Source: Candidatus Microgenomates bacterium
GTDB lineage: Bacteria; Patescibacteriota; Microgenomatia; JACQLA01
Assembly (NCBI GenBank): GCA_016204255.1
Contig: JACQLA010000003.1
Span: forward strand, 184,088 to 248,087
Direction of reading: 5' to 3'
Length of the DNA: 64,000 nt
A program made the position numbers and the translations under genes. Below the pieces are notes generated by a model. It did not search any database. It saw only the letters and a list, made by a program, of their open reading frames with translations, and was not told where the DNA came from. Below are positions 1 through 26,489 of this stretch, one piece after another. Every line of letters begins with the position of its first letter. Position 1 is the first letter of the stretch.

Positions 1-1707
<1,707 letters not shown>

Positions 1708-3894: not shown

Positions 3895-6426
3895 ATGAGC
3901 GATATTGGAAAAATACAAGCTGCTGAAATCACACAAGAAATGCAACGGTCCTATTTGGACTATGCAATGTCCGTTATTGTTTCTCGGGCCTTACCGGACG
4001 TTCGTGACGGTTTAAAACCCGTCCATCGCCGCATCCTTTATGCCATGCATCAGATGGGGCTTTCACACGCAGCAAAATACACCAAATCGGCTAAAATTGT
4101 CGGTGAGGTTTTAGGTAAGTATCATCCGCATGGCGATATGCCGGTTTATGATGCTTTAGTCCGGCTGGCTCAGGATTTTTCGATGCGCTACGCCTTAGTC
4201 GATGGACAGGGGAACTATGGATCGGTCGACGGCGATCCGCCGGCCGCCATGCGTTACACGGAAGCCCGCCTGACCGCGATTGCCCAGGAAATGCTTCTGG
4301 ATCTGGAAAAAGAAACCGTCGATTTTGTTCCCAATTTTGATTCAACTCTTAAAGAACCTGTCTTTTTGCCGGCCAAACTTCCGAATTTACTGCTTATGGG
4401 TTCGGAAGGTATCGCGGTTGGTATGGCCACCAAAATCCCTCCGCACAATTTAGGTGAGGTGATTGACGCCATTACCTTTATGATTGGGAAAGCCAACAAA
4501 AAAGCGGAAAACAAAATGGCGGATAAGACAGATCAACAAGCAAAAGAGAACAATGAAATTTCGGCTCAGTCATCCCTTAATTTTGATGTCTCGGTTGAAG
4601 ATCTGATGCAGTTTATAAAAGGCCCCGACTTTCCCACGGGAGCGGCAATTTATGACATCTCGGAAATTACCGCCGCCTACGCGACCGGTAAAGGAAAAAT
4701 TATTATGCGGGCCAAGGCCGAAATCGAGGATATCGGTCAGGGAAAATCAGCTATTATCGTTACGGAGTTACCCTATCAAGTCAATAAGGCTCAGCTTGTC
4801 GCCAAAATTGCAGAACTTGCCAAAGATAAAAAAGTTGAGGGTATTTCGGATTTAAGAGACGAATCAGACCGCCACGGAATCCGGGTGGTGGTTGAGTTAA
4901 AACGCGATACCCGACCGCGCACTGTTTTACAAAATCTTTTTAAACACACCGCAATGCAAACAACCTTTCCTGTCAACCTCGTGGCTTTGGTCGAAGGCAC
5001 GCCTCAAACTTTAACCTTGAAAATGGTTCTGGAAAAATATATCGATCACCGCCGCCAGGTGATTGTCAGGCGATCAGAATTTGAGCTAAAAGAGGCAAAA
5101 GCAAGGCTTCACATTCTTGAGGGATTAAAAATTGCGGTCGATCATATTGATGAGGTTATCGAAACTATTAAAAAATCCAAAGACGCCGATGAGGCCAAGG
5201 GAAAACTTATGGAGCGTTTTGGTTTGAGTGTTATTCAAGCCACGGCCATCCTAGATATGCAGCTTCGCCGCCTTGCGGCACTTGAAAGACAAAAAATTGA
5301 AGACGAGTATGAAATGGTCAAAGAGACCATCGCTTATCTTGAAGATTTATTGGCTCATCCGGAGAAAATTTTAGACTTAATAAAAAGCGAGCTTTTGAAA
5401 GTTAGGGAAAAGTATGTAGACGAGAGGAAAACTCGAGTTTATAAATCCAAACCAGGAGAATTTTCTGAAGAAGATTTAATCCCCAAAGAGAATGTGGTAA
5501 TCACTCTTAGTCAATCGGGATATATTAAGCGACAGTCCTTAAATACGTTTAATATCCAACAGCGGGGTGGCAAGGGGGTTATGGGAATGAAAACTAAAGA
5601 AGGGGATGAGATTGATCATATCCTTTCGGCGTCAACCCATGACAATATTTTGTTCTTTACTAATAAAGGTAAAGTCTATCAAATGCGGGTTTGGGACGTC
5701 CCAGAAGGAACAAGAATCTCTAAAGGACAGGCTATTGTTAATATTATAAACATCGAGCAGGGCGAAATGGTTAGCTCCATCTTAACTTATCCCTCAGACA
5801 CAAAAGGGGAGGGGAAATACATTTTTCTGACTACAGAAAAAGGAACGGTTAAGAAAACTGAACTTTCAGAATATACTAATATTCGTAGAACTGGACTTAT
5901 AACGATTAAGCTCGATAAAGATGATGAGCTTTGCTGGACGAAATTAACCTCCGGTAAAGACGACGTAATTCTGGTCACCCACGACGGTAAATCAATTAGA
6001 TTTAATGAGAACCAGGTACGACCGACTAAAAGAGATACGATGGGGGTACGCGGGATTCTCTGTGGTAAAGACGATTATGTAATCGGGATGGACATTGTTA
6101 AATCTGAAAAAGACGAACTTTTGGTTATTATGGAAAAGGGGTTAGGTAAAAAAACTACCCTTTCCGAATTTCCAAAACAAAGCAGAGGAGGCAAAGGCGT
6201 TAAAGCCTGTGAAACCACCCAAAGAACCGGTAAAGTTATCACCTCCCATATTATTGAACCCAATTGTGACTCCATTATTTTAACATCTGTTAACGGTCAG
6301 GTCGTTAAAATGCCCATAAGTTCTGTTCCCAAACTTTCCCGCGCTACCCAAGGCGTGATCCTGATGCGTTTTTCCGATCCGAAGGATTCATTGGCCGCGG
6401 CGACTTGCCTTACAAAAGAAAAGTAG
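3895..6426 (+). CDS. gyrA: DNA gyrase subunit A
   Basis: N-terminal [29 protein letters not shown] (catalytic Tyr region) and a C-terminal beta-pinwheel with repeated GxGKG motifs. 843 aa, with a short Lys/Asn-rich insertion near residue 200. Confidence 0.92.
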
Positions 6427-6564
6427 ATTGCGTCAACCCCATAGAAATTTGCTTCCCGCACGTTAAAATGAGAAAATAGATTTGTAAATTTAATTTAAAC
6501 AAGTCTGACAAGGACAGACCCTGTACAGGGACGGATCTTGCAGATCTCATAGATACTTACGGTT

Positions 6565-7437
6565 ATGAAATTTGATGGTCGTGCTTTAGCTCAGAGAATT
6601 TTTCACAAATTGAGCGGAAAAATTAAGAATCTTGAAATTAAGCCACACTTGGTAGTAATTTTAGTGGGGGAGAACCCTGTCTGGGAGGCTTATGTCCGGC
6701 AAAAAAAGAAAAGAGGCGAAGAGATTGGAGCCAAAGTAACCATTGATCAGCAGAAAGAATTTATAACAACCCCAGAGTTAATTAAAGTTATCGAAAAACA
6801 CAACAACGATAGGGGAGTCCACGGAATTATTATTCAGCGCCCATTGCCGCCGCAAATTGACGGACAAGCCATTGCTCTGGCTGTTGCGCCCGCAAAAGAT
6901 GTCGATGGGTTTCATCCAGACTCGCCACACCCGATGCCAGTGGCTGATGCAGTCATGAAAATTCTTAAAGAAATCCAAGGTAATAATCAAGAATTTAATA
7001 AGTGGCTAAATTCTAAAAACATTGTCGTTATCGGCAAAGGGGAAACCGCGGGTGGACCGATTATTTCGGCTTTAGAAAAATTAGGAAACACACCAAAAGT
7101 AATAGACAGTCAAACTAAAAATCCCGAACTTTTGACCAAAAATGCCGATATTTTAATCAGCTGTGTGGGTAAAGAATCTGTTGTTACCCAAGAGATGCTT
7201 AAAAAAGGCCTGCCTGCCAATAGGCAGGGAGCTATTCTCATCGGTGTCGGCCTTCACAAAGATAACCAAGGAAAACTTGCCGGCGATTATGATGAAAATG
7301 AGATAAAAGATATCGCTGCCTTTTATACGCCTGTCCCCGGGGGTGTTGGCCCCGTTAATGTGGCCTGCCTTCTTGAAAATCTTGTCGGTGCCTGCCTCGC
7401 CGAGTCAAGGCGGGCCTGCCTCAAACAACAAAAATAA
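6565..7437 (+). CDS. folD: Bifunctional methylene-THF dehydrogenase / methenyl-THF cyclohydrolase
   Basis: FolD N-terminus (KFDGRALAQRI..., VVILVGENPVWEAYVRQKKK) and C-terminal TPVPGGVGPVNVACLLENL motif. 290 aa. Confidence 0.85.
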   Translation: MKFDGRALAQRIFHKLSGKIKNLEIKPHLVVILVGENPVWEAYVRQKKKRGEEIGAKVTIDQQKEFITTPELIKVIEKHNNDRGVHGIIIQRPLPPQIDGQAIALAVAPAKDVDGFHPDSPHPMPVADAVMKILKEIQGNNQEFNKWLNSKNIVVIGKGETAGGPIISALEKLGNTPKVIDSQTKNPELLTKNADILISCVGKESVVTQEMLKKGLPANRQGAILIGVGLHKDNQGKLAGDYDENEIKDIAAFYTPVPGGVGPVNVACLLENLVGACLAESRRACLKQQK

Positions 7438-7454
7438 CCTATATTTCGGGTTTT

Positions 7455-7560
7455 CATTTTGGGGAGCCCGCATAGACCGCGGGCGACTCCAGAATCTGAT
7501 TCTGGACAAGCTCGCCTCGCTAAAGCCTCGACGGAGCGGGCCAGAATGACAAGGGTACGA
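7455..7560 (+). other. GC-rich structured island in the folD to LuxR-like intergenic region. Hairpins gagcccgc..gcgggc and ccagaat-ctg-attctgg, with short direct repeats ccagaat / gacaag.
   Basis: Local GC is far above the flanking sequence. Several perfect short stems are present. Only spurious overlapping ORFs cover it in three frames. Confidence 0.4.
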
Positions 7561-7598
7561 AACTTGCATCTATTCAACATTTCAACCTGCTTATTTTT

Positions 7599-8150
7599 AT
7601 GTCTATTAAACAGGAAAGATTTATTAATGGTTTTGAAAAACCGCGGGAGGAATTACTTTCTCCAGGAGAGTTAGAAATTTTAAAACTCATGGCGCGCGGA
7701 TTAAGTGAAGCGGAAATTCATAAGGAATCAGGGATTCCTATTCAGCTTTTAAGACACCTTCTTTACCGCGATCCCGCCCATTACAAAAGTCCAAATGTAA
7801 AACAAAAGGGAATTCTTCCAAAACTCGGGGCTCAAAGTCGTGAACAAGCTGTCTTGAAAGCGCTTGATTTGGGTTTTTTAGATCTTGGAGAAATAGAACG
7901 AAAGTCTGGCTTTAATCTGGAAAGATACGCAGAGTTAGACGATAAAGAAACACAATTATTGAATGTGCTTGATGATTCCTCTCATTCTGGACGAAATCAG
8001 ATTCTCGCTGAAAGATTAGGCGTGGTAAGAGATACCGTTAAAGATCAATTGAGCAGTATCTACAGAAAATTAGAAGTTTCAAATAAGATGCAAGTCGCCC
8101 TTTTTCATCGAATTGTCAAATCAAAACCACCACTTCAGTTGCCAAATTAA
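7599..8150 (+). CDS. LuxR/GerE-type transcription regulator with two tandem HTH_LuxR domains (paralogue 1 of 3)
   Basis: N-terminal LSPGELEILKLMARGLSEAEI and C-terminal ETQLLNVLDDSSHSGRNQILAERLGVVRDTVKDQLSSIYRKLEV each match the LuxR HTH pattern. No receiver or ligand domain. Confidence 0.6.
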   Translation: MSIKQERFINGFEKPREELLSPGELEILKLMARGLSEAEIHKESGIPIQLLRHLLYRDPAHYKSPNVKQKGILPKLGAQSREQAVLKALDLGFLDLGEIERKSGFNLERYAELDDKETQLLNVLDDSSHSGRNQILAERLGVVRDTVKDQLSSIYRKLEVSNKMQVALFHRIVKSKPPLQLPN

Positions 8151-8222
8151 TCAAAATGGCCTATAATTGAGCATCAATTAGACGAGCCGCGTAAGACGCG
8201 GCGAAGTATAATAGAAAACCTT

Positions 8223-8759
8223 ATGACCATAGAAAGATACATACCGACTACTGCAGTTGAAGGCGAACAAAGCAGCCTTTTAACCTCCCGACAAATCGAG
8301 ATCCTTAAATTAGTAACCTATGGTTTGACTTATAAGGAAATCGCTGCGAGACTATTAATTTCAGATCAGACCGTCAAAAACCATTTAACTCAACGTTCAG
8401 AATTTGGATCGATCCCTAAAGGAATCTTTGATCGACTTAATGTACAAACTAGAGAACAGGCTGTTTTAAAAGGACTCGAATTAGGTTATTTAGATTTAAA
8501 CGATATTGTCGAAAATTCCGGTTTACAACTCAACAAAATTGTGTTACTCACCCCCAGAGAAATTGATGTTATACACAAGCTTTCTGATCCCGAATGTGTA
8601 GGGAATAATAAAGTCACTGCTAAATCGCTAGGAATTTCTCCCGCCACATTGCATTATCATATGGAAAATATCTGCAAAAAATTAGAGGTCAAAAACCGAA
8701 TTCAGGCGATGGTTTTTCACCTGGCAGTTAAAAGAGAATTGGGGGTAGTAAATGAGTAG
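8223..8759 (+). CDS. LuxR/GerE-type double-HTH regulator (paralogue 2 of 3)
   Basis: SRQIEILKLVTYGLTYKEIAARLLISDQTVKNHL plus a second C-terminal HTH. Shares the TREQAVLKGLELGYLDL linker motif with its neighbours. Confidence 0.6.
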   Translation: MTIERYIPTTAVEGEQSSLLTSRQIEILKLVTYGLTYKEIAARLLISDQTVKNHLTQRSEFGSIPKGIFDRLNVQTREQAVLKGLELGYLDLNDIVENSGLQLNKIVLLTPREIDVIHKLSDPECVGNNKVTAKSLGISPATLHYHMENICKKLEVKNRIQAMVFHLAVKRELGVVNE

Positions 8760-9288
8760 AGAAAGAGTTATAGATTATCCCCGCCAGAGCGTGTTAAGCC
8801 CGCAGAAAAGAGAAATTCTTGAGCGTGTAGCCATTGGTCAAACCAATGCTGAAATCGCCAGGGCATTTGGTAATGCGCTCGCAACAGTTGTAAGTCATCT
8901 GCGCGGGGAAAATAACTCAATTCAGCATCGATTAGGAGCACGAAGGCAAGGCCAGGCAATCCTTAAGGCGTTTGAAATGGGGGAGCTGGATTTAATAACA
9001 ATAGTTGAAAAATGTAACTTTGACTTTGACCGCTATAAAAAACTGATGCCAAGAGAAATTCAAGTTTTAGACAAACTTACCAATCCTTCTCGTCGAATGG
9101 GAAACAAAGATATCGCAGATGTAATGCATATCGGCCGCGATGCCGTCCGACTTTCTTTATACAGCATCGGGAAAAAATTAGGAGTCAGTAAGAGGGAAGA
9201 GATGATAGTTTTTCATCTGGCGGCTACAACTTATCCTTTTGAAAAATCGGTAAGATACAATGGGGTAGTTGAAGAATCGGGTTTTTAG
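8752..9288 (+). CDS. LuxR/GerE-type double-HTH regulator (paralogue 3 of 3)
   Basis: Same architecture. Overlaps paralogue 2 by 8 nt (translational coupling). The stop abuts the convergent purD stop. Confidence 0.55.
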   Translation: MSRERVIDYPRQSVLSPQKREILERVAIGQTNAEIARAFGNALATVVSHLRGENNSIQHRLGARRQGQAILKAFEMGELDLITIVEKCNFDFDRYKKLMPREIQVLDKLTNPSRRMGNKDIADVMHIGRDAVRLSLYSIGKKLGVSKREEMIVFHLAATTYPFEKSVRYNGVVEESGF

Positions 9289-10620
9289 TTACCGGGATAC
9301 TCCTCGCTGGCCGATGTCGGTACGATAATGCATGGGGACGAAGAAAATTTTCCCTTCGGGAACCTCTCCCTTCCGCATTTCTACCGTGGTAGCAATAGAC
9401 CGATAAGCTCGATTGGCAGCGATTTTTGGAGTTGAGCCAAGACCGGCAACAAGGGCCACCCGTCCGCCTGAAGTTAGGATTTTTCCATCTTCATTTCTGG
9501 TTCCCGCTTGAAAAACGACAACATCTCTTTTTTTGGCAACTTCTTCAAGCCCAAAAATTTCTTTACCCGTTTCGTACTCTCCCGGATAACCGCTGGATGT
9601 TAAAACCACACCAACACAATACTCATTCGACCATCGTAAAGGAGTCTTATCTAATCTTCCATCAACCAAAGCATCAAAAGCTTGGATAAGGGGAGTTTGG
9701 AGTAGGGGCAAGGCTCCTTGAGTTTCCGGGTCCCCGCCGCGGCAGTTTATTTCCAAAACTTTGGGACCATCTTTTGTCATCATCAAACCGGCATAGATAA
9801 ATCCTTTGTAGGGGCCCGAGTTTGCTCCCGCTTTTTGAACAATTGGTCTTAGAATCTGTTCAGTCAAAGGCCTTAGATCTTCCGGACTAATCACTTCCCA
9901 GAAGGGAGCAACAACACCCATTCCGCCGGTATTTGGACCCCTATCACCATCAGAAACCTGTTTATAATCCTCCATGGGAATTAGCGGCTGGATTGTCTCT
10001 CCGTCGGTTAAAGCAATTAAGGAAACTTCCCTGCCTTCAAGTTTTTCTTCGATTACCACGCGGTCGCCGGCCGAACCAAATTCTCTGTCAACCATCAATC
10101 TTTTCAAGGAATTTTGAGCTTCTTCAAGGGTTTGGCAAACGAAAACACCTTTACCTCCGCATAAACCATCAGCTTTTATCACCACCCCATCCCGCTCCCA
10201 AGCGGCTAAAAAATCTCGAGCATTCTGATAAATACTAAAGGTAGCAAAATCCGGCCCGGGAATACCCCAGCTGGCTAAAGCGTGTCGGGCATCTGCTTTA
10301 CTTGTTTCAAGTCTTGCAGCTGATTGTGTAGGCCCGACAATTCTTTGACCTCTATCGTTAAATTCATTGACGATTCCTTTTGCCAAAGGTTCTTCCGGCC
10401 CGACCACTGTCAGATAAATATTATTTTCCCGTGCATAATCGGCTAACTTTCGCGGATCATCTATTCCAATCCCAGCGTTTGTGCCGCTTTGGGAAAGATC
10501 CGCATTGCCGGGTTCGGTGTAGTGGATTTTCACAGTTGGATCTTTTCCCAAAGACCAAGCATAAGCACTTTCCCGAGCGCCATTCCCAACTATCAAAATT
10601 TTTTTAAGAGTTTCCGGCAT
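9289..10620 (-). CDS. purD: Phosphoribosylamine--glycine ligase (GAR synthetase)
   Basis: 443-aa ATP-grasp protein. N-terminal KILIVGNGARESAYAWSL and the overall PurD layout. Last gene of the minus-strand pur operon. Confidence 0.85.
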   Translation of the reverse strand: MPETLKKILIVGNGARESAYAWSLGKDPTVKIHYTEPGNADLSQSGTNAGIGIDDPRKLADYARENNIYLTVVGPEEPLAKGIVNEFNDRGQRIVGPTQSAARLETSKADARHALASWGIPGPDFATFSIYQNARDFLAAWERDGVVIKADGLCGGKGVFVCQTLEEAQNSLKRLMVDREFGSAGDRVVIEEKLEGREVSLIALTDGETIQPLIPMEDYKQVSDGDRGPNTGGMGVVAPFWEVISPEDLRPLTEQILRPIVQKAGANSGPYKGFIYAGLMMTKDGPKVLEINCRGGDPETQGALPLLQTPLIQAFDALVDGRLDKTPLRWSNEYCVGVVLTSSGYPGEYETGKEIFGLEEVAKKRDVVVFQAGTRNEDGKILTSGGRVALVAGLGSTPKIAANRAYRSIATTVEMRKGEVPEGKIFFVPMHYRTDIGQRGVSR

Positions 10621-11673: not shown

Positions 11674-13125
11674 CTAAGCAGTTTTATTAAAATAATCTAA
11701 AATTGATTGCTTTATAGCTGCGGGAGAGCTGTCAATTCTTGACAAATCCTGTCCGGTTAATCGCTGGTAGGGTTCGGTGTATAAAGCTGCCAGCTTCCCA
11801 GTGATTTCTTCGGGAACGTGCGGAATGCGGCCCTCGCCGGAAAACCCATGATCCACAAGCCAAAGTCGTAAAAATTCCTTATCCAGACTTTCCGGTTCCT
11901 CTCCGCGTTTTAGTTTTTCTTTATAACTTTCCAATCGCCAAAGTCTTGAAGAATCGGGAGTAAAAATTTCATCAATTAAAACCAGTTTGCCGTTTTTATC
12001 TTTTCCAAATTCAAATTTGGTGTCCACCAAAATCAGCCCGGCTTTTTTATAAATTCTGGCCGCTCTTTCAAATAAGGCTTGAGCAGCTTCTTCCATTTCC
12101 CGGTATGTCTTGCCAAAAAGTTTTGTGGCCTGGCTGGGCGAAATAATTTTGTCATGCTGACCCCCTTCGGCTTTGGTTGTCGGAGTAAAAACAAGTTTTG
12201 GCAGTTTTTGATTTTTTAAAAGTCCTTTGGGTAATTTTAGCCAATCATAAAGACCGGTTTTTTCGCTATAATTTTTCCATAAAGATGTCGAGGTTGAACC
12301 GGTAATATAGGCCCGGACAATCATTTCAATCGGGACCGATTTGCATTCTGTGCAAACTGTAACGTTGGGGTGGGGGATAGCAATCATGTGATTGGGAATA
12401 ATATCTTTAGTTTTTTCAAACCAGAATTTAGACAAAGTGTTTAAAAGGCGGCCTTTGCCGGGAGTTAAGCAAACGATGCGATCAAAAGCCGACTGCCGAT
12501 CGGTAGTAATCATCAATCGTTTGCCATCTTTCAAAACCCAATTATCCCGAACCTTACCCTGAATCTTCGGGCCGAAAGAACGGGGCAAATTAACTGTTTC
12601 CAAAGTTTGAAGAGTAGGGGAGTGATAGGAATTATTTTTTTCACTCAGGACGATATCCGCCTGAACAATTTTTTCGCGAAAACTTTTTTGATAATTTTCA
12701 AATTTTTCCGCAAGTTCCAAATTATCTAAAGCAAAAATTTTAACCGCCGCCAAAGCCGCCGTCTCCGGCTCTAAAACTACCGTAGCTGCAATCCCGGAAG
12801 GCATCCGCAACGAAGAAAAAATATCCGCCCCACCGTATTTTTCGCCATAAGGGGGACAGGAAATCACCGGATTTTTAGTCTGGGCGTCTATAAAACCGCC
12901 CAAAGCATTTGATCGCCCGGCCACAGCAATATAAATAATTTTTTTATTCTGACCATCATAATTTTTGATTAGTTCCAAAAGATGTGCGGGTGTTTTATGC
13001 GCCGAACCGATACGCAAAACAGATTCAACCGAGAATTTATCTAAAACTTGTTTTATTTTTTCAGCCTGCTCCTGATCGGTAGGGGAGCCCATCACAATTA
13101 CTACCAGTTCTTCTCGACTATTCAT
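11674..13125 (-). CDS. Fusion protein: N5-CAIR mutase / AIR carboxylase (PurE) N-terminal domain + SAICAR synthetase (PurC) C-terminal domain
   Basis: Residues 1-~160 match PurE (VVIVMGSPTD..., SAHKTP, GGADIFSSLRMPSGIAATVV). Residues ~190-483 match PurC (KVRDNWVL..ITTDRQSAFDRI, LVDTKFEFG). 4-nt overlap with purB. Confidence 0.8.
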   Translation of the reverse strand: MNSREELVVIVMGSPTDQEQAEKIKQVLDKFSVESVLRIGSAHKTPAHLLELIKNYDGQNKKIIYIAVAGRSNALGGFIDAQTKNPVISCPPYGEKYGGADIFSSLRMPSGIAATVVLEPETAALAAVKIFALDNLELAEKFENYQKSFREKIVQADIVLSEKNNSYHSPTLQTLETVNLPRSFGPKIQGKVRDNWVLKDGKRLMITTDRQSAFDRIVCLTPGKGRLLNTLSKFWFEKTKDIIPNHMIAIPHPNVTVCTECKSVPIEMIVRAYITGSTSTSLWKNYSEKTGLYDWLKLPKGLLKNQKLPKLVFTPTTKAEGGQHDKIISPSQATKLFGKTYREMEEAAQALFERAARIYKKAGLILVDTKFEFGKDKNGKLVLIDEIFTPDSSRLWRLESYKEKLKRGEEPESLDKEFLRLWLVDHGFSGEGRIPHVPEEITGKLAALYTEPYQRLTGQDLSRIDSSPAAIKQSILDYFNKTA

Positions 13126-17911: not shown

Positions 17912-19003
17912 ATGACAACCACCAAAGAAGGTTATAACCCTAATTCAGCAGGAAGTAGTTCTTCCCTGGCAGGCTTGACGCTCCATCCGGAAATTCCTGA
18001 GAAACCCTCAGATGATTTTTTAAATGGATGGCGGCGTTTTAAGACTAAACCGCCGGAAATCGATCTTTCCAAAGGCAATTTTTGGCAAACCGAGCTTGGC
18101 GCAGCAGCTAAAGAATTCGTTTTTGCGCAAACAGATCGTCCCAAAACAACTGTCCAGGTTGCCAAAAAATTACGGTTAAAAGGGGGTAAAGAATCATCTC
18201 ATTTTATAATGAAGCTCGTTCGAAGCGGAATAATTGTAGGCGCGGAAAAAGCCGGAGGCAGAGGATATCGACTCCCTAAACCTCAAATGATTATTTGCGC
18301 CCTTGTTCTCCGTGACTTAGAAGATGGCCTTTCACTTCCCGAAATCGTAAGTCATCTTTCTCAAAAACTGGAGGGGACCGATTTAAAGCAATTTGTGGGC
18401 GAGGCAAAGGAAAATTATGATGATTTAAAACCTGGGGTGGTTTTTTTCACCGAAACTTCTCCCTGGTATCAAAAAACCTTTGAGTGCATGACAGTAACTG
18501 ATTCCCAAGGGACATTAGGCGGTGAGGATAAGTCATTAATCTCCCAAAATGTTCAACCAGACACGGAAGAAATTGATGAGGAAGACTTACCCGAGTTTAA
18601 ACCAAAAAGCCCATTAGATAAGATCATAGAAATTGATGAGGAACAATTGGCAGAGTTGGAAAAAATTGATCCGGAACGACTTAAAAAGATTTACGGTCGC
18701 GCGCCTGACAACTCTCTAGAAACGTTTAACCTTCATCGCCTAAATGCGATTGCGAGCGAAAAACTACCATTCTCTGTGGTGAAAACATTGCTATTCATTC
18801 ATCTTGTTCGAAATAGACATCTCAGGCCTCTAGATGAGAAGTTAGATGATTTAACTTTCGCCGATTTTCGGCGTACGGCCCAAACTTGTCTTAGAATTTT
18901 TGACGACTATCCTCATCTCCAAAATCTTGCTCAGCTTTATAAATATCTCAGGCAAGCGGTTGAAGAAAATCCAACTCGATTTATGGAGCCCTCAAGATAT
19001 TAA
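17912..19003 (+). CDS. Hypothetical protein with a possible winged-helix segment and an acidic repeat region
   Basis: 363 aa. TTVQVAKKLRLKGGKESSHFIMKLVRSGIIVGAEKAGGRGYRL is wHTH-like. An acidic EEIDEEDLPEF / EIDEEQLAELEKID repeat follows. Confidence 0.3.
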   Translation: MTTTKEGYNPNSAGSSSSLAGLTLHPEIPEKPSDDFLNGWRRFKTKPPEIDLSKGNFWQTELGAAAKEFVFAQTDRPKTTVQVAKKLRLKGGKESSHFIMKLVRSGIIVGAEKAGGRGYRLPKPQMIICALVLRDLEDGLSLPEIVSHLSQKLEGTDLKQFVGEAKENYDDLKPGVVFFTETSPWYQKTFECMTVTDSQGTLGGEDKSLISQNVQPDTEEIDEEDLPEFKPKSPLDKIIEIDEEQLAELEKIDPERLKKIYGRAPDNSLETFNLHRLNAIASEKLPFSVVKTLLFIHLVRNRHLRPLDEKLDDLTFADFRRTAQTCLRIFDDYPHLQNLAQLYKYLRQAVEENPTRFMEPSRY

Positions 19004-19009
19004 AAACGT

Positions 19010-19747
19010 ATGCGACAAGAGAGAACAATTGGCAATATTCATGAACACCACCCCAGGAAGAATCCATATGGGGAATATTTAACTGGGGATGAAATCAAAT
19101 TTAGTCTTCAAACCCTACAATCAGATGGCTCTTTAAGGTCTTGTGATCAAAGAATAGTTATTCGAGATGTTCGCGGCGGAGGGTTTTTTGGGCGGGTTAT
19201 AATTCCTGAAGATGGAGGATACGTTATAAAAACTTCCTGCCCGGATTCATGGCATCATTTATGGCGGGAAGTTAACTGGGATTTCAAACCGTTTCCAGCT
19301 CGAGTCTTTGAAATTGACGCCCAACTCGAACATCTTTCCACAAGACTTATTCATCAAGTTTTACCAAGATTATCCGGCGGAAAATTCCGCAGTCCTGATT
19401 CATTTGGCTACACGGACTTGCCCAACGGATTTGCTCAAGTCGTAGAAAAAATGGAGGGAAGAGGGCCACGATTTGATTTGCCTAAAAACGAATTTTTGGA
19501 ATTTCGCCAGGCACAGGAAGAACTCACCGATTTGGCTTTGCGTCTAGGTCTTGAACAAGCAGGTCAGATACACCCGGAAAATCCTTTTGGAATGGCCAAT
19601 CTTTGGAAAGAAAAAGACGGCCATGGTTTTATTTGGCTCGATACCATTCCAGCTATTCCCCACAATGGCTGGATTAAACCTTTTTTCCACTTTAAATTTC
19701 ATAAAAAAAATGCGGCAGTGGTTTGCTCAGAAAAAAACTACTTTTAA
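19010..19747 (+). CDS. ABC1/UbiB-like atypical protein-kinase-fold protein, N-terminal part (probable frameshifted gene)
   Basis: Gly-rich VRGGGFFGRVII..YVIKT, and a catalytic-loop-like QIHPENP...GFIWLDT that matches the ABC1 HxDxHPGN...DFG arrangement. The ORF ends 37 nt after an A8 run. Confidence 0.4.
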   Translation: MRQERTIGNIHEHHPRKNPYGEYLTGDEIKFSLQTLQSDGSLRSCDQRIVIRDVRGGGFFGRVIIPEDGGYVIKTSCPDSWHHLWREVNWDFKPFPARVFEIDAQLEHLSTRLIHQVLPRLSGGKFRSPDSFGYTDLPNGFAQVVEKMEGRGPRFDLPKNEFLEFRQAQEELTDLALRLGLEQAGQIHPENPFGMANLWKEKDGHGFIWLDTIPAIPHNGWIKPFFHFKFHKKNAAVVCSEKNYF

Positions 19748-20627
19748 TCGTATCCATACAGGATACTTCCTGAATGAAATAGTCCAAAATAAACATCTTT
19801 TCCCGCCTGATCTTTACCAAGAATTAAAACAAGAGCTTTCCCTTTATGAAAAACTTTGGGAGAAAAGAGAAGAAATACATAAAAACGACAAACCGGATAT
19901 CGGTCCGGCGGCAAGAGCCCTGGGTGAAACCGCCAAAGATCTGCTTACTGAAAGAGCCATTTTTAAACTAATCGCCGATCCTGAATATAGGGCAAATAAG
20001 TTGGCTGATTTTATCTCTATCCTGACCGATCCTAAATATCGTGCTTTTTTACTCCAGAAAAATATTATTTTAAGAGGAGTAGAAAGAGCCCGGCAAGAAG
20101 GAATAATTGCTGACGATGAATGGAGTGCTGTCTGGGAAGCGATGGAAATTGCTCGGGCCCCTGAGAGAAAAACCCGTTTCGATCCGAAGGCAACTTTAAC
20201 AAGCTTGCAAATTTATTACCTTGTCTCAGGTCAAATCCTAAACATTCTTGAAGGTTCTGCATATATAAAAGCAGTCCTCGACGAAGATAAATTTAAGGCT
20301 GTAGCTTTAGGGATATTTGTTGGTCGAATACTACCATCTATCATAAGGCCGGTCTCAACCTTGATAACCGGAGCCGTTAGTAAAAACGATCTCAGAGTTG
20401 CTACAGTCTTCTCGGCTTTTCCCGGCGGAACCTGGGCCGCTATACCCATTCAATTCGGTGCCATGGCAGCAGGTAGAAATCGGTTAGTTTTACATTATGC
20501 TATTCGAGACATTATTGCTGGATTATCAAAGTTAAGTCCATCAGGCGGTTGGGGAACAGAATTAGAAGCTAAACTTTATGAAAAAGTTGGAGCACGTTTG
20601 GAAAAAATTGCCCAGCCAAAAGATTAA
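19710..20627 (+). CDS. Helical C-terminal part of the same UbiB-like gene, or a separate overlapping gene (ATG at 19710 directly after the A8 run)
   Basis: Frame 0 is open from 19551. The in-frame ATG at 19710 is inside the 3' end of the previous ORF. Combined length of about 540 aa equals a typical UbiB/ABC1 protein. Confidence 0.4.
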   Translation: MRQWFAQKKTTFNRIHTGYFLNEIVQNKHLFPPDLYQELKQELSLYEKLWEKREEIHKNDKPDIGPAARALGETAKDLLTERAIFKLIADPEYRANKLADFISILTDPKYRAFLLQKNIILRGVERARQEGIIADDEWSAVWEAMEIARAPERKTRFDPKATLTSLQIYYLVSGQILNILEGSAYIKAVLDEDKFKAVALGIFVGRILPSIIRPVSTLITGAVSKNDLRVATVFSAFPGGTWAAIPIQFGAMAAGRNRLVLHYAIRDIIAGLSKLSPSGGWGTELEAKLYEKVGARLEKIAQPKD

Positions 20628-20663
20628 CTCATTTATTCCCCGAGTGGAAGGCATCGTGGACTT
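20625..20663. repeat. Direct repeat copy 1 (39-bp perfect core, taactcatttattccccgagtggaaggcatcgtggactt). Orphan copy of the recombinase 3' end.
   Basis: Identical to 21358..21396. Imperfect similarity continues for about 20 more nt (…ttatttgtta…). Confidence 0.9.
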
Positions 20664-20739
20664 TTCGCAGTTATTTGTTAATAATACTAGATCTTCAGAT
20701 AATTTGCCTATACTCTATTTAAAATAGTAAAATACGCCT

Positions 20740-21360
20740 ATGGGTAGCAAGGAAGAAAGACAACAGAATCGAGGAGAAAAAAAGCCAATTGGAAAGTGGA
20801 CAACAGAATGGGAGCCAGGATTGGATGTGGAACTACCCATAAAGGGTGACGATATACAGGGTTTCTCCGGTTGGGCCTCGTGGGTTTGTTTCGGTGAGCA
20901 CCATCTGGGATTTGACTTTGCCGTCTATATTGATGAAAAAGGGAATCAGATTGAAGGTCTTCCAAAAGATACCCCTGTAAGAGCTATTGCGGACGGCACG
21001 GTAGTAATGGTTGATAACTGGGATAATTTCCTTGAGGATCCATATTATAACTTTATTAGTATCAGACACGGCCATAATGAGGCAGGACCATCTTCAGAAT
21101 ATATCCATATCATATCTTTAGTTAAGATGGGCCAACTTGTTAAAAAGGGAGAGGTCATAGGAAAAGTGTGGGAAGCTGAAGATCCGGAAGAAAGAAAAGA
21201 ACATCCGGCCCCACACCTACATCTTTCCTTAGCCAATGGTCGCGTGGAAACAGACGAACCATTAGATTTAGGAGAGGTGGATCCTGTTAAAGTCTTCCCA
21301 GAGTTGGGGAAGATTCCGCAATTTATTGAACCAGACGATGATGAGTTAACTGTAATCTAA
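20740..21360 (+). CDS. M23-family (LytM-type) zinc metallopeptidase, no signal peptide
   Basis: HHLGFDFA (HxxxD), VRAIADGTVV, IRHGHN and PHLHLSL (HxH) motifs. 206 aa. Flanked by the 39-bp direct repeats. Confidence 0.7.
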   Translation: MGSKEERQQNRGEKKPIGKWTTEWEPGLDVELPIKGDDIQGFSGWASWVCFGEHHLGFDFAVYIDEKGNQIEGLPKDTPVRAIADGTVVMVDNWDNFLEDPYYNFISIRHGHNEAGPSSEYIHIISLVKMGQLVKKGEVIGKVWEAEDPEERKEHPAPHLHLSLANGRVETDEPLDLGEVDPVKVFPELGKIPQFIEPDDDELTVI

Positions 21361-21396
21361 CTCATTTATTCCCCGAGTGGAAGGCATCGTGGACTT
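21358..21396. repeat. Direct repeat copy 2. Overlaps the last 11 codons plus stop of the recombinase gene on the minus strand.
   Basis: Reverse complement encodes [11 protein letters not shown], which is the C-terminus of the 21362..22282 ORF. Confidence 0.9.
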
Positions 21397-22282
21397 CTTT
21401 TAATTGTTTATTTGTTACATGGGTATAAATCTGGGTGGTGGAAATATTTTTATGCCCTAGCATCTCCTGAACCGAACGCAAATCAGCCCCTTGAATTAAA
21501 AGATCGGTCGCGAATGAATGGCGCAGGCCATGGGGCGTAATTTTTACCGGTAGGCGACATTTTTTCGCGTACTTTTCCACCATTCTTTCAACTGAACGAG
21601 CAGTCAACCTCATCTGTTCGCCATCTTTTTCCTGTTCAACCTTGCCTGAATAACGGATAAACAACGGCTTGAAATTGTCTTCTCTTTTTCCCAGATATCT
21701 TTTAAGCCAATCAACCGCCGAATGAGACAAGAAAACCACCCGGCTTCGTCCTCCCTTGCCGATCACCCCAAACTCCCGGCGTTCCAAATTAATATGATCG
21801 CGGTTTAGTTTTACAAGTTCGGAGACACGAAGACCGGTGGAAAAAAGTGTTTCCAAAATCGCCTTATCACGTAAACCTTGCGGGGTTGAGATTTCCGGTG
21901 AGTTTAAAAGCCTTCCTACTTGTTCATTATCTAAAAACTTAAGCGAACGACTCTCAGCTTTGGGCAAATCAATTTTTTCGGGTGATAAAACTTTATAATC
22001 TCGCTTTGCTAGATATCTTAAAAAAGCCCGCAGGGCAATGACATAATAATTTTGCGTAATTCGCTTTAAGGGTGCCGGCTCGGCAACGTGAGCTAAATAA
22101 AGCCGGTAACGGCGCACAAGCTCAAGATTTATTTCCTCCGGTTTTTCGATAGGGGAGTTGGCTTTAACCCAAGCAGCAAACCTTTCTAAATAGTGCCGAT
22201 AATCTCGAATCGTTAAAGGAGAGCAATTCTTTTCAATTTCTAAATATTCTAAAAATTCATTAATTAATTTTTCTAAATTCAT
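21362..22282 (-). CDS. Tyrosine site-specific recombinase, XerC/XerD-like
   Basis: N-terminal SAM-like domain ([26 protein letters not shown]). C-terminal catalytic [39 protein letters not shown] with the catalytic Tyr. Confidence 0.85.
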
Positions 22283-22465
22283 AGGGTAGGGTAGTAGAGT
22301 CGTAAAATTTAATCTCTTTTTTCATTTTACGACATCATAAGAAGTTGTCAATCCACAGATTCTTCAGTTTTCTCTAGATTGTGCGACATCAAATCATTTC
22401 TGGAGCCTCCTGTCAACATTTTGCTATTGACAATACCATTTAATTAAGATTTAATAATGTGAAGT

Positions 22466-22780
22466 ATGCCAAGTTTGAAAGAAAGCGTTAGAAATGTCTT
22501 AAACGCCATAAAGAAAAAAGAAGATCCAAAATCTTTACACGCTGACGAATCCGTCATGCCTCGCTATGAGGCCCATCGGGAAAAGATGCGGGAAGCCGCA
22601 AAAAATTTATTTTCGCGGACGGAACCACCACCAACATTAGGAGAGTTAAAAGAATATTTTAATTTGGCTCAGGGTTTACCTACTCCCACTTTTGATAACG
22701 CATACAAAGTTGCAAAAGAACGCAATGTCCCAGAATATCAGGAGGCCGTTGAAGAAACCCGTCGCTTATTAAACCGTTAA
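22466..22780 (+). CDS. Hypothetical protein
   Basis: 104-aa ORF, charged, no recognisable motif. Confidence 0.3.
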   Translation: MPSLKESVRNVLNAIKKKEDPKSLHADESVMPRYEAHREKMREAAKNLFSRTEPPPTLGELKEYFNLAQGLPTPTFDNAYKVAKERNVPEYQEAVEETRRLLNR

Positions 22781-22818
22781 AAATTCCGTTATGGTCGGCG
22801 CGAGATTCGATATAACTT

Positions 22819-23247
22819 ATGTATCCAAAAGAGTGCGCAGGTTGTCTTTTCCTTAGTAAAATTTTCAGATATGATGGCAACCCGCCCGAGGACGTCATCC
22901 TGAGTCTATCCCCAGAGGATCGCCGAGCATTCTTAAAAGATCTACGCGATGAAAACTCTTGGCGAGAGCTTGACTGTTGTGAAGCCATCCCACATCCTTT
23001 ACCACCACCTGAAATTGACCTAGCAGGAAAATCTGGAGAGATATTGTTTCCCCAAGCTTGCCCCAACGAAGGTCCAATTACCATTTTGCCAGTAAATAAT
23101 GCCGAATTGATGGATCTTGTTGATCATTTAAATGCGGCTCCGGCACGACAAAAAGGAAAAATAAGGATTGTGTTTGGAGTGAACGAGAAAACAGACAATG
23201 GCAATAGGCCCAGTGTTGAAGTTAAGGAAACCGTAGAAGTTTCCTAA
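22819..23247 (+). CDS. Hypothetical protein (Cys-containing)
   Basis: 142-aa ORF with no recognisable family. Confidence 0.3.
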   Translation: MYPKECAGCLFLSKIFRYDGNPPEDVILSLSPEDRRAFLKDLRDENSWRELDCCEAIPHPLPPPEIDLAGKSGEILFPQACPNEGPITILPVNNAELMDLVDHLNAAPARQKGKIRIVFGVNEKTDNGNRPSVEVKETVEVS

Positions 23248-23250
23248 TCC

Positions 23251-23718
23251 TTAATCAATCTCTCCTGTGGGAATGTCCATATCGGCTAAATAATATCCGG
23301 CGCCACGGACTGTGATTATAATCTGCGGCTCTTTTGGATCCGGTTCAATTTTTTTCCGGAGATAACTGACATAAGTCTTTGCATGCTTTGTGCTATATTC
23401 CGGACCGAAGACCCGATTTGTTAATGTCCGTGCCGATATAATCATATTGCGAAACTCCCAAAAAAGCAGCAGCATTTTATTTTCATTCGGCGATAGTTTT
23501 TTGTGCTTTCCGCCAACAAAAACTTGGGACTTATCGGCATCATAAGTAAATAGTTCATGTTTAAATGCTCGCGGCTGAGATCCTAACCTTGCTTCGACAT
23601 CATCAGGAAGTTTCTCCGGTAAATCGTGTCGTTGCGGAAGACCTCTTAAATCTTCGGCGGCTGCTTTATATCCTGCCTGATACAATCTTCGTGCTAGCCC
23701 TTCAACATCGTTTACCAT
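23251..23718 (-). CDS. Orphan OmpR/PhoB-type winged-helix DNA-binding protein (trans_reg_C domain only, no receiver domain)
   Basis: The C-terminal 90 aa (LSPNENKMLLLFWEF..RTLTNRVFG..YVSYLRKKIE..ITVRGAGYYL) match the OmpR effector domain. The N-terminal 65 aa are unrelated to REC. Confidence 0.6.
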   Translation of the reverse strand: MVNDVEGLARRLYQAGYKAAAEDLRGLPQRHDLPEKLPDDVEARLGSQPRAFKHELFTYDADKSQVFVGGKHKKLSPNENKMLLLFWEFRNMIISARTLTNRVFGPEYSTKHAKTYVSYLRKKIEPDPKEPQIIITVRGAGYYLADMDIPTGEID

Positions 23719-25179
23719 AAAATCGGCTTATTATACATCGTTAGTTATTAAAATTTTAGTTTTGGGCTTTAGAGCAAGCCGTATATTCTACGAGCTCGCT
23801 AAATGCCCTAGAAGGGCTTTTAAAAGACTGAAAGCACTAAGTAGTCGTCTTCTAGGCCTCTTTAAAGATCAAAAAAATCTTTTTTCGGAAAAATTTTATT
23901 AAAACCTATAGTAGAGAAGGGGAGTCGCAAATATAAACGGTGGCAACAGAAACCATCTCCCCTGGCATAAAAATAAACCGGAGAATCGAGCCTTTCCCCT
24001 ATAAGTTGCATTTATATTGGTTTTAGGCCAATGCAAGGCTCCAAATCTGATAGTTAACCATACGGAAACCATATTTTAAAAAGATTTCCTAAAATTTAGG
24101 CAGGATTGGGTAAAGAAAGGGAATTTAAGGCCTTTATATGGTTGGAATTTAGAAAAAAGCTGTAAACTTTATTAGAAGTTAAAAAATACACCCCTTCCCC
24201 AAGCGATACTGCTTGGCGTCGCAAAAGTATTATTGTGCGACATTATAGGAAACTCGCTCCTCCCGGGAAAGGAGCCCCAAAAACCTCTCTCTATGCGAGC
24301 TATAAAATCCGATCATTATTAAAAGACGTGTCCTGTTGCCTTGAGATTATCCCGGGGAGTATACTCTTCCATTTAGATAGACTAACAATCAAACTGAACC
24401 TACATATCTTAATTCAGAGTGCGTTAAAACCGTTAATGAATTGAGGCCGGCAAGAGCATCACCTGCTTCTGACCCCGTATTAAATAATAAATATCGCATT
24501 ACAACGCTCTAGAAGTCCAATTTCGAGGCCATTTCATCAACCATTTTTGGGTTTTTTATGGTTTATGTTCTACTTAGGTAACAAATTGGGGCATCACATA
24601 ATAGCGGGCCAAACTCTCAATTTAGAGCCTAAGAAATAGTGTGGACTTTATAACAAAAAAGCCCTTCTCCTCAAGGAAAAAGAAGCAAATCCCTTAAAAC
24701 GATGTCGCAATATATCAAACGATTTAAGGCTTTATGACGTTCTAAAGTCTTATTTTTGTGGCTAATTTTTGGAGAATTATCGACCTTGATAGAATTTGGG
24801 GCGTAGTAATGCGCTAAAGTTTTATTTTTGTGCGCAAATAATGTGTTCAATCAAGGGAGGCAGTAGAAGTGAGAAAAGCCATAAAAGCACTCTTCTTCCC
24901 AAGTCGCTAATCTATGGCGTGAAAAGACTTATAGTATTTGTGTGAAAACTTATCCACAGTATTTACTATAGGACTATTATAGGCTTTAGTATCAAACTGT
25001 ATCACCCCCTCCTCCTCCCCTTTTTACTCGTTTTATTTAAAAAAATTGCAGTCGACAATAAAAACATTTTTAAAACAAATCCGCAAATGGTGATTTTAAA
25101 AAGCGGAAGGAAATAAATTGTTAGAGGGAAAAAATGAGATACTCTTCTCTCCCCTGTTTTCCAATAAACGTAAGAAAAA
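23719..25179. other. 1.46-kb ORF-free AT-rich region (no ORF of 70 aa or more on either strand)
   Basis: Stops in all six frames. It contains a 20/22-nt direct repeat (ctaaagt(c/t)ttatttttgtg, 79 nt apart) and several short hairpins. Density elsewhere in the window exceeds 90% coding. Confidence 0.6.
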
Positions 25180-25989
25180 TTATGTTCCCCATTTTGTGCT
25201 AATAAGTAAGATAAGAAAAACAATTACAGGAACCACAAAAAATTCAAGAATTGTTTTTTTAAATAGCCGACCCGTTAGATACTGCTGCCCTACTCCAAGA
25301 AGAGCATAAAACATCCCAATTAAAAATAACGTATAAAGAGAAATATTTAGTGGCCAGAAAGAAAGCATTAGGGCTATTTCTGATAAAATTAGTGCAATCG
25401 AAAAACTATAAATAGCTACCGGCTCTGTAATCCCCTCCTCAAGCTTTACCGCCCATAGGGCCTGAAAAACTAAAGGCAGTGAAATTATAAAAACCCCAAA
25501 AAAAATTCCCCAATAAGCTAAATGAAAGGAAAAAAGAGATTGAAAAAGCAAGAAAGCGGTAACTAGGGTAATCAAAAATCCCACGGCATGAGCCGCCCTT
25601 AAAAGTTGGATTGTACGAATAGCCGCAACATTATAAATATTTTCGGTTAATAAAAGCGCGTACATCCCTATTGCATAAAGAGTGGCCACTGGAAGTCTTG
25701 TAATCCATCTTACGGGCAGTAAAAAATAAAACAGGCCAACCGCCAACGTATACATCGCGGGTAAAACCAGTAAGGTTATCCATTCAATTCCCGAAAGATC
25801 TTCCCGCAGGGCAAAGGCGGTAAGAAAATAAGCGGCAATGGCTAATATTCCAACGACTAAAAATCTTGATTCTGATTCTAAAACTTGCGTAACAATCAAG
25901 CCGGAAGTTAAAAAAGCAGTTACTAATACGAATATCTGCCGCTTGGAGATACTTATCTTTGGAAGTTTCCATTTTTTATTGGTTTTCAT
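25180..25989 (-). CDS. Polytopic integral membrane protein, unknown function
   Basis: 269 aa, about 8 hydrophobic segments. 4-nt overlap with ruvC. Confidence 0.5.
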   Translation of the reverse strand: MKTNKKWKLPKISISKRQIFVLVTAFLTSGLIVTQVLESESRFLVVGILAIAAYFLTAFALREDLSGIEWITLLVLPAMYTLAVGLFYFLLPVRWITRLPVATLYAIGMYALLLTENIYNVAAIRTIQLLRAAHAVGFLITLVTAFLLFQSLFSFHLAYWGIFFGVFIISLPLVFQALWAVKLEEGITEPVAIYSFSIALILSEIALMLSFWPLNISLYTLFLIGMFYALLGVGQQYLTGRLFKKTILEFFVVPVIVFLILLISTKWGT

Positions 25990-26489
25990 AAACTCCGGGC
26001 GTGATAAATGGCCATCGCTAGGGCATCGGCAGCATGTTGCGGTTTTGGAGAGTCTTTTAAATTTAACATTATTTTTACTTTCTCTTGGACAAGATTTTTC
26101 TCGGCTCGGCCATTACCTGTCAACCCAAGCTTAACTTTTAGGCCCTGGTATTCAAAAACAGGCATTTGGGCCTCAGCTATAGTTACAATTAGTACTCCCC
26201 TTGCCTGAGAAACCATCATCGCGGTTTTAGAATTTTGTCCAAAAAAAAGTTGCTCAACGGCTGCTTGATCGGGCTTGTGCTTTTTAATCACATCCCCCAG
26301 TTGTTCTTTTAAGAGCAGTAGTCGTTTGGGAATAGTGTGATCAACTAAAGTTTTGATACAACCGTAACTCACTAAAGTTAATTGATTGCCAAGTTTTTCT
26401 TTTTTACTTTTTGACGGTTTTTCCTCCTCAATACAAATAATTCCCCACCCGGTCTCCGCCATTCCTGGATCAATCCCCAAAATCAGCAT
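25986..26489 (-). CDS. ruvC: Holliday junction resolvase RuvC
   Basis: MLILGIDPGMAETGWGII N-terminus, RNase H-like fold, 167 aa. Confidence 0.85.
   Translation of the reverse strand: MLILGIDPGMAETGWGIICIEEEKPSKSKKEKLGNQLTLVSYGCIKTLVDHTIPKRLLLLKEQLGDVIKKHKPDQAAVEQLFFGQNSKTAMMVSQARGVLIVTIAEAQMPVFEYQGLKVKLGLTGNGRAEKNLVQEKVKIMLNLKDSPKPQHAADALAMAIYHARSL

Follow-up and report, generated by a model that had tools for sequence, protein, structure and literature searches.

A stretch of 64,000 nucleotides from contig JACQLA010000003.1 of a Candidatus Microgenomates bacterium (the window) contains a gene for an Xer-family tyrosine recombinase (xer), three small genes and a long stretch devoid of open reading frames (ORFs). 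We propose that this region is probably a resident module of the Gottesmanbacteria chromosome, resembling the xer/dif systems of the single-recombinase type, with an insertion hot spot located inside it. Its central element, termed here site C, is a 28-bp imperfect palindrome that lies in the ORF-free stretch and represents a candidate dif-like site. The gene adjoining this stretch encodes a DUF5656 protein, whose matches identify the relatives of the organism as Candidatus Gottesmanbacteria (Microgenomates, candidate phyla radiation, CPR). Through this protein, 59 species-level genomes were obtained for comparison; individual loci are given by their L numbers. The first-pass annotation of the window had read the same genes as an islet left by an integrated element.

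The Xer recombinase and site C

The gene xer (21362–22282, minus strand) is located where a tyrosine recombinase had been annotated, and encodes a 306-aa protein with a Pfam Phage_integrase domain (8.4e-44) and an N-terminal SAM-like domain. The NCBIfam models for XerD and XerC score 256.8 and 253.8 bits, both under their cut-offs; the only NCBIfam Xer model that the protein passes is XerA_Arch (234.8 bits, cut-off 220). Among solved structures, the best matches are archaeal XerA and, at 7e-42, XerD of E. coli, and the residues R-K-H-R-H-Y align; the match to the XerH structure is weak (4.9e-12). The alignment with XerD includes the motifs LRVSEL, GKGgR, HgLRHsFAT, LGHkn and QIYTHV, and the catalytic set is complete.

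The order hyp334-TPR-YebC-DUF5656, followed by an interval of 0.5–4.4 kb with the non-coding element and then xer, occurs in 52 of the 59 species genomes, with the Xer proteins being 51–70% identical and encoded on the same strand. The order YebC-DUF5656-element-xer is also kept in metagenome contigs. As both the gene order and the recombinase are retained to this extent, we consider the protein a resident Xer and not the integrase of an island.

Site C is located at 24216–24243 on the minus strand, that is, at x = 937–964 when positions are counted along that strand from the DUF5656 stop codon (window coordinate = 25180 − x). It has an 11-6-11 architecture, ATGTCGCACAA|TAATAC|TTTTGCGACGC, in which the arms agree at 8 of 11 positions, and it is AT-rich and non-coding. 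A 24-nt core is exact in the window; when the window is counted together with the 59 species loci, 51 of the 60 sequences have the core with no more than four mismatches. When two degenerate positions are allowed, the core is found exactly in at least 120 metagenome contigs. Among the matches listed there is one copy per contig, contigs of 506–906 kb included. Wherever flanking sequence exists, site C has DUF5656 upstream and xer downstream, even where the DUF5656 protein is only 34–40% identical. The block that contains the site is 93–100% identical, compared with 34–56% for the adjoining DUF5656. The distance from site C to the xer gene downstream of it ranges from 226 to 5,483 nt (113 loci).

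Linkage between dif and the recombinase gene is a hallmark of single-recombinase Xer systems (PMC5357621). In Legionella, dif was recognized by a length of about 30 bp, low GC content, palindromicity, a non-coding location and varying neighbours (PMC9765430), and all these features are found in site C.

Parts of the site recur next to xer. The 12-mer ATGTCGCACAAT, which belongs to the left arm of C, occurs exactly and on the same (minus) strand at 24232–24243 and at 22378–22389; this second copy, D, lies 96 nt upstream of the xer ATG. For a relaxed form of the pattern, 0.86 matches are expected. A further copy with one mismatch, ATGTCGTAAAAT (22324–22335), overlaps the −10 element of a good xer promoter-like site, TTGACA-16-TAAAAT (22324–22351, minus strand; 11/12 in the promoter scan). 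In 111 of 115 loci the left-arm sequence GTCGYACAAT is found within 200 nt upstream of the xer start, on the same strand, and in closer relatives the half-site belongs to a second palindrome, GTCGTACAAT-N-ATTGTAGAGAC.

Additional palindromes were observed around xer. Locus L035 contains, at about 11950–12190 and within some 200 nt upstream of xer, four different dif-like palindromes in tandem, GATGTCGCACATCATTGGTTGTAAGGACGTC and GACGTCGCAATAATTGCTTTGTGCCGACGT among them, which may be scars of successive events. On the downstream side of xer, L025, L028, L040, L043, L045, L054 and L061 have another conserved half-site, GACGTCGCACAAT-N-CTTTTCGAAATA, at about +3.5 to +3.8 kb from the xer start and near the point where gene orientation flips.

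Five loci (L009, L016, L017, L046 and L062) contain, at the position of site C, a gene for a second Xer-like recombinase (330–339 aa) that is about 30% identical to the main Xer. It is accompanied by a palindrome of its own, TATCGAGTATAATATCCCTTAYACTCGAT, which ends at or abuts its start codon, so that gene and palindrome make up a parallel module of site plus recombinase. A conserved ORF of 176–178 aa comes after the second recombinase in L017 and L046.

On the basis of this architecture, we suggest that site C would be the DNA target of Xer, with each 11-bp arm bound by one monomer and the 6-bp TAATAC spacer as the place of strand exchange. If it works like XerS/difSL, XerH/difH and XerA/dif, the site could serve the resolution of chromosome dimers.

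The variable gene slot between site C and xer

In the window, the interval between site C and xer is occupied by three genes. Two of them, both on the plus strand, encode the hypothetical proteins expected from the first-pass annotation: orf104 (22466–22780, 104 aa), with a gene-like codon score of 0.195, and orf142 (22819–23247, 142 aa), an ORFan with a weakly positive score of 0.075. Neither matches any model in the four hidden Markov model libraries Pfam, NCBIfam, PHROGs and PADLOC. The third gene (23251–23718, minus strand) encodes a 155-aa winged-helix protein of the OmpR/PhoB type (codon score 0.207); as annotated, it lacks a receiver domain, its only domain being Trans_reg_C (3.6e-14, residues 71–144). 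A search of 5.8 billion proteins, made with orf142 and the winged-helix protein, returned for orf142 only the protein itself, and for the winged-helix protein, apart from its own entry, just 33–37% identity to effector domains of full response regulators. None of the three genes has a counterpart in any of the 59 related loci (tblastn in the case of orf104).

The content of this interval varies from genome to genome. Its length ranges over the distances given above, with a median of 1,136 nt, and in the same 113 loci it harbours 125 ORFs of at least 90 aa. They represent 63 families, of which 48 are singletons; in 24 loci the interval has no such ORF. The commonest slot genes among the species genomes encode proteins of about 305 aa (22 loci) and 232 aa (18 loci), and neither is present in the window. 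Taking together the lack of counterparts and this variation, a small lineage-specific insert does exist in the window. Comparison with the relatives confines it to about 22390–24215, and on sequence grounds we consider this three-gene segment an insert specific to the species, in a slot whose content changes from one relative to the next. Such a slot beside the site marks a place where streamlined genomes of about 1 Mb repeatedly gain and lose genes, and a recurrent slot is relevant to strain-level variation in uncultivated bacteria.

A homology break at site C was seen in the pair L035 and L038, whose Xer proteins are 89% identical and whose cargo differs. Left of C, the two sequences have identities of 0.92 and 0.77; within C the value is 1.00, and right of it 0.53, as for random sequence. 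In addition, six contigs end within 30 nt of C, against 1.4 expected; this enrichment is suggestive only. By analogy with integrative mobile elements exploiting Xer (IMEX), site C might also act as an entry point for incoming DNA, in which case cargo would gather between C and the half-site proximal to xer.

The islet of the first-pass annotation is thus real as far as the three genes are concerned; it was not brought in by the recombinase, and it sits inside a conserved host module. That the whole region might be the remnant of an integrated element, in which the recombinase would be the integrase of that element, the cargo unknown and the non-coding DNA decayed, appears extremely improbable to us. 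The three small genes are indeed lineage-specific, and on the other side xer is adjoined by a repeat-flanked gene for an M23 peptidase. Against such a remnant, both the recombinase and the non-coding stretch are conserved, and keep their position, throughout the phylum. The GC content (0.416 for the cargo) and the tetranucleotide usage of xer and the three genes are host-like. The phage and defence libraries gave no informative match for the cargo: nothing in PADLOC, and in PHROGs only phrog_731, of unknown function, for the winged-helix protein. When the proteins encoded in the slots of relatives were compared with 22283–25179 by tblastn, only chance matches were obtained (E ≥ 0.047), and no pseudogene remnants were seen. 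Conserved synteny together with host-like composition, the finding that the first-pass annotation had itself set against an integrated element, is what we observe for the recombinase and the ORF-free stretch.

A different view of the same data is that a conserved transcription factor encoded elsewhere regulates xer by way of site C and the half-site at xer, both being its operators, and that the slot reflects ordinary intergenic turnover, with no recombinase acting there. The half-site does overlap or precede xer promoter-like sequences, and AT-centred palindromes are also typical of dimeric repressors. We nevertheless regard this explanation as distinctly unlikely: an invariant 24-nt sequence is unusual for an operator where the neighbouring proteins are 35–50% identical, the second recombinase is found at this position with a palindrome of its own, and 63 gene families in one intergenic slot far exceed ordinary turnover.

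The other flank of xer has peculiarities of its own. A 55-nt direct repeat (20625–20679 and 21358–21412; 87% identical, the first 39 nt being identical) brackets the M23 peptidase gene (20740–21360). As the second copy consists of the last 17 codons and the stop codon of xer, the first copy is a duplicated 3′ end of this gene. Four genes at 17912–21360 have no counterpart adjoining xer in the 59 related loci, and for this reason DNA may be inserted on this flank of xer, too. Three independent assemblies of the same organism (the Logan contigs L002, L005 and L006) stop at the 55-nt repeat, at the 3′ end of xer and after 305 of its 306 codons, which suggests either a repeat-induced or a population-level fork in the assembly graph. 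Two ORFs of the same strand, 19010–19747 (245 aa) and 19551–20627 (358 aa), share 197 nt. The long start is probably wrong, or a frameshift is present, as the annotated 305-aa call in L001 starts later.

Three further observations concern the surroundings in the relatives. In the window and in a few loci (L065, L070, L088, L091 and L121), a gene for RuvC (25986–26489 in the window) lies between YebC and DUF5656; in most relatives YebC abuts DUF5656. The most divergent relative, L065, carries 5S and 23S rRNA genes a few kb from xer (5477–9388), with a group I intron in the 23S gene. Many of the related metagenome-assembled genomes among L009–L066 are deposited as 'uncultured Gammaproteobacteria bacterium'; these record titles look wrong, since gene order and protein identities place the genomes with Gottesmanbacteria/Microgenomates.

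Conserved blocks in the ORF-free stretch and a possible replication terminus

The ORF-free stretch comprises 1,461 nt (23719–25179). As stated in the first-pass annotation, none of its frames holds a sizeable ORF, the upper limit being 73 aa, and the codon-usage score is negative for every ORF inside it. It is the largest gap between ORFs in the window, about 2.7 times the next one (547 nt). The remainder of the window is 91.7% coding when non-overlapping ORFs of at least 90 aa are counted, in agreement with the estimate of more than 90% made before. The stretch had also been described as AT-rich, which holds to a modest degree: its GC content is 0.366, compared with 0.410 ± 0.024 for window stretches of equal length (3rd percentile).

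The same stretch had been taken for decayed DNA, and this is not the case. In the relatives, the first 0.7–1.3 kb past DUF5656 are likewise ORF-poor, and about 850 nt of the window gap (x = 150–1000) align colinearly with them (nhmmer E values down to 7e-21), DUF5656 itself being about 50% identical. Given this colinearity, the presence of invariant blocks and the lack of pseudogene remnants, we conclude that the gap is a conserved element.

Apart from site C, two blocks stand out, block conservation being taken from an alignment of 51 sequences. Block A (24915–25025, x about 155–265, minus strand) contains in the window a purine G-run, GATAYAGTTTGATA, CTATAG, TGTGGATAA and two direct TTTTCAC repeats. 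In the alignment, the order is a G-run, one to three direct copies of GATATAGTTTGATA, CTATAGG, TGTGGATAA and two direct copies of TTTTCACG about 20 nt apart, with column conservation of up to 0.99. The window copy of TGTGGATAA (24950–24958) is a perfect DnaA-box sequence. Within 1.6 kb upstream of C, TTTYCACR was found in 134, the GATA repeat in 121 and TGTGGATAA in 111 of 144 loci.

Block B (24380–24850, x about 330–800, minus strand) consists of degenerate tandem units of 41 nt, tAGCCTCAAAA-N8-TTTAGAGCGTAATAATGCGCTAAAt; one of them lies at 24723–24763, and 24722–24760 and 24794–24832 form one detected repeat pair. The 59 sequences contain 163 such units, one to seven each (at least two in 53), always on one strand. 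In the seven-copy array of L044 the units are spaced by 78–106 nt. Distant lineages have a compact element of about 300 nt that keeps the G-run, the pair of TTTTCACG, GATATAGTT and site C. As these compact versions often lack the units (and the DnaA box), the unit array is, judged from the sequences, a lineage-specific expansion. AGCCTYRA boxes are aimed at C from either side, the forward ones at −800 to −200 and the reverse ones at 0 to +400.

Two simple explanations of the repeats were discarded. A tandem repeat protein was considered, as three L044 units share a frame; unit spacings of 103 and 106 nt break it, and the arrays are not spanned by any ORF of 70 aa or more. A CRISPR array was rejected because the units are not identical and cas genes are missing.

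The stretch could also specify a long modular non-coding RNA of about 0.85 kb, transcribed from the minus strand, whose 41-nt modules would bind protein in the manner of the CsrB/RsmZ sponges and in which C would be an RNA hairpin. Blocks and units do occur all on one strand and in fixed order, and the number of modules (one to seven) differs among species. In our reading of the alignment, TGATATAGT in block A resembles an extended −10 element, and in some loci an inverted copy comes after block C, its variant bases matching those of the block. We consider such an RNA unlikely in view of the structural data. Rfam returned nothing for the window gap, either at the gathering threshold or at E ≤ 10, nor for the loci of eight relatives at the gathering threshold; the only tRNA found is 10 kb from the gap. 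The putative stem of the unit shows no covariation: among 149 distinct units, Watson–Crick pairs occur as expected under independence at 10 of 12 tested pairs of positions, and are fewer than expected at 26-33 and 28-31. Neither strand is enriched in hairpins with GNRA or UNCG loops (6 versus 7 in 41 kb). The impression gained by eye of UUCG- or GNRA-capped inserts with compensatory stems was dropped after counting. Folding z scores are about −0.9 on both strands, compared with −0.5 and 0 for coding controls; the element of the window has a z score of −1.18, and 3 of 20 shuffled sequences fold as well.

Blocks A and B thus fit arrays of protein-binding motifs in DNA rather than a folded RNA. 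We would guess, without holding strongly to it, that they form an accessory or architectural region of the recombination site, by analogy with cer and psi; alternatively, they might be a promoter or leader reading through. The conserved repeat array has no match in the libraries or papers searched and, lying beside the candidate site, offers a concrete and testable object.

The DnaA box raises the question whether the element is a cis-acting site of replication, that is, the chromosomal origin or, at the terminus, a fork-trap array of one-way Ter-like units. In favour of this, the perfect DnaA box is as widespread upstream of C as stated above, and in the alignment it comes after the tandem GATATAGTTTGATA repeats, an arrangement that can be likened to that in E. 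coli, where the 13-mers precede box R1. The units are in tandem and in the same orientation, and genes converge on the locus. Along the 10 kb before the element, the DUF5656 strand carries 87–99% of the coding bases in most 1-kb bins (two bins with the TPR gene are lower), and from 5 kb beyond the element 77–90% of the coding bases are on the opposite strand, so that convergence is conserved (about 40–50 relatives).

A site of this type is, however, very unlikely in our view. The gap contains just two DnaA-like boxes with at most one mismatch, one perfect and one with a single mismatch; no signature motif of dnaA, parB or ftsK was found in the window or the 59 loci; and the compact versions of distant lineages often do without DnaA box and units. 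Convergent genes are the opposite of the pattern at an origin, and GC skew keeps its sign at the locus. For these reasons oriC was also rejected as a candidate in its own right.

The skew data bear on the terminus as well. Ahead of the locus, GC skew amounts to +0.092 in 37 relatives, and past it the value is still positive (+0.027). With both flanks positive, a terminus at the locus is not supported within 5–9 kb, and a two-component reading of the relatives' skew does not fit a terminus exactly at the locus. In the window, cumulative GC skew has its maximum at about 9 kb, some 15 kb from C. This distance falls inside the range of 89 bp to 79 kb reported for Legionella dif (PMC9765430) and, like the convergence of genes, counts in favour of the xer/dif-like reading. 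At about 9288/9289, where the cumulative skew peaks, convergent genes also meet, 15 kb from site C, and this point is possibly the replication terminus.

The proposed xer/dif-like module and known systems

Several observations weigh against the interpretation of the locus as a xer/dif-like module with an insertion hot spot. Four full-length loci with the second recombinase lack the canonical site C while still having the main xer. The half-site proximal to xer is present with or without cargo; since it is independent of cargo, the direct repeats around the three genes of the window reflect a conserved architecture and are no proof of an integration event. The host-like composition of the cargo does not speak for foreign DNA. 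A homology break at C was seen in a single closely related pair, one of nine pairs being informative. The lack of a sign change in GC skew within 5–9 kb of the locus is a further point, and blocks A and B are left without explanation by a xer/dif-like model. We still favour the xer/dif-like module as the probable explanation. A search of a literature library found no paper on dif in CPR bacteria; for such a large CPR lineage, a candidate site would provide a marker for the replication terminus and for the completeness of genomes that are mostly derived from metagenomes.

Among known systems, integrons (intI-attI-cassette array) resemble the locus in having a tyrosine recombinase beside a hypervariable slot of unrelated, mostly single genes. 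Unlike integron integrases, the protein of the window scores only 114.9 bits with model TIGR02249 (cut-off 265), and its gene is not oriented divergently from the slot. The cargo genes lack bounding attC-like sites, and a half-site inside the cargo, between two genes, was found in one locus only, L033. A more far-reaching proposal, which we put forward tentatively and think rather unlikely to hold in full, is that of a gene-capture platform driven by Xer in Gottesmanbacteria and related Microgenomates. The recombinase would be of a housekeeping type, its invariant dif-like site would double as an integron-like landing pad for single genes, and a conserved accessory region of one to seven 41-nt units flanking the site would control synapsis or directionality, either replacing FtsK or acting alongside it.

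The locus can also be compared with XerL/dif of the Legionellales and its element LME-1, and with IMEX such as CTXphi and the gonococcal genomic island (GGI), with which it shares a conserved palindrome of about 30 bp in non-coding DNA with varying neighbours. In these systems, foreign DNA that has integrated is bordered by an intact site at one end and, at the other, by a copy that is partial or modified (PMC9765430, PMC5357621). Correspondingly, the insert of the window is bounded by the intact site C and, in direct repeat, by the partial site ATGTCGCACAAT, a copy that is also conserved in cargo-free loci. Unlike in those systems, the xer promoter has this second copy as a conserved half-site even where cargo is missing, and no mobile element is recognizable: the cargo consists of 0–5 kb of unrelated single genes, and that of the window has neither recognizable element genes nor a foreign composition.

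The plasmid sites cer and psi provide a parallel for the conserved flank. In them, conserved non-coding DNA with a length of a few hundred bp adjoins the Xer core on one side (PMC5357621), as it does site C, whose flank could likewise bind architectural proteins. The site of the window differs in being chromosomal and in having a flank of up to about 0.8 kb made of tandem 41-nt units. No sites for ArgR, ArcA or PepA were recognized in it, and the likeness is purely one of analogy.

The closest parallels are single-recombinase systems. In XerS/difSL of streptococci and lactococci and XerH/difH of Helicobacter and Campylobacter, as here, one Xer is linked to an imperfect palindrome of about 28–31 bp in non-coding DNA by the gene (PMC5357621). 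Unlike XerS and XerH, the protein of the window, at 306 aa, has the size of XerD and XerA and is closest to these two. Its full candidate site lies 0.2–5.5 kb from the gene, with variable genes between them and only a half-site at the gene; the site sequence is unrelated, and the module is known from sequence. With archaeal XerA/dif, the locus shares the only NCBIfam Xer model that its recombinase passes and a 28-bp site of 11-6-11 architecture. The archaeal site, likewise 28 bp long and built as 11-6-11, is served by one recombinase, and some species have xerA and dif joined as a module (PMC5357621). The host here is bacterial, and the sequence of the site is different.

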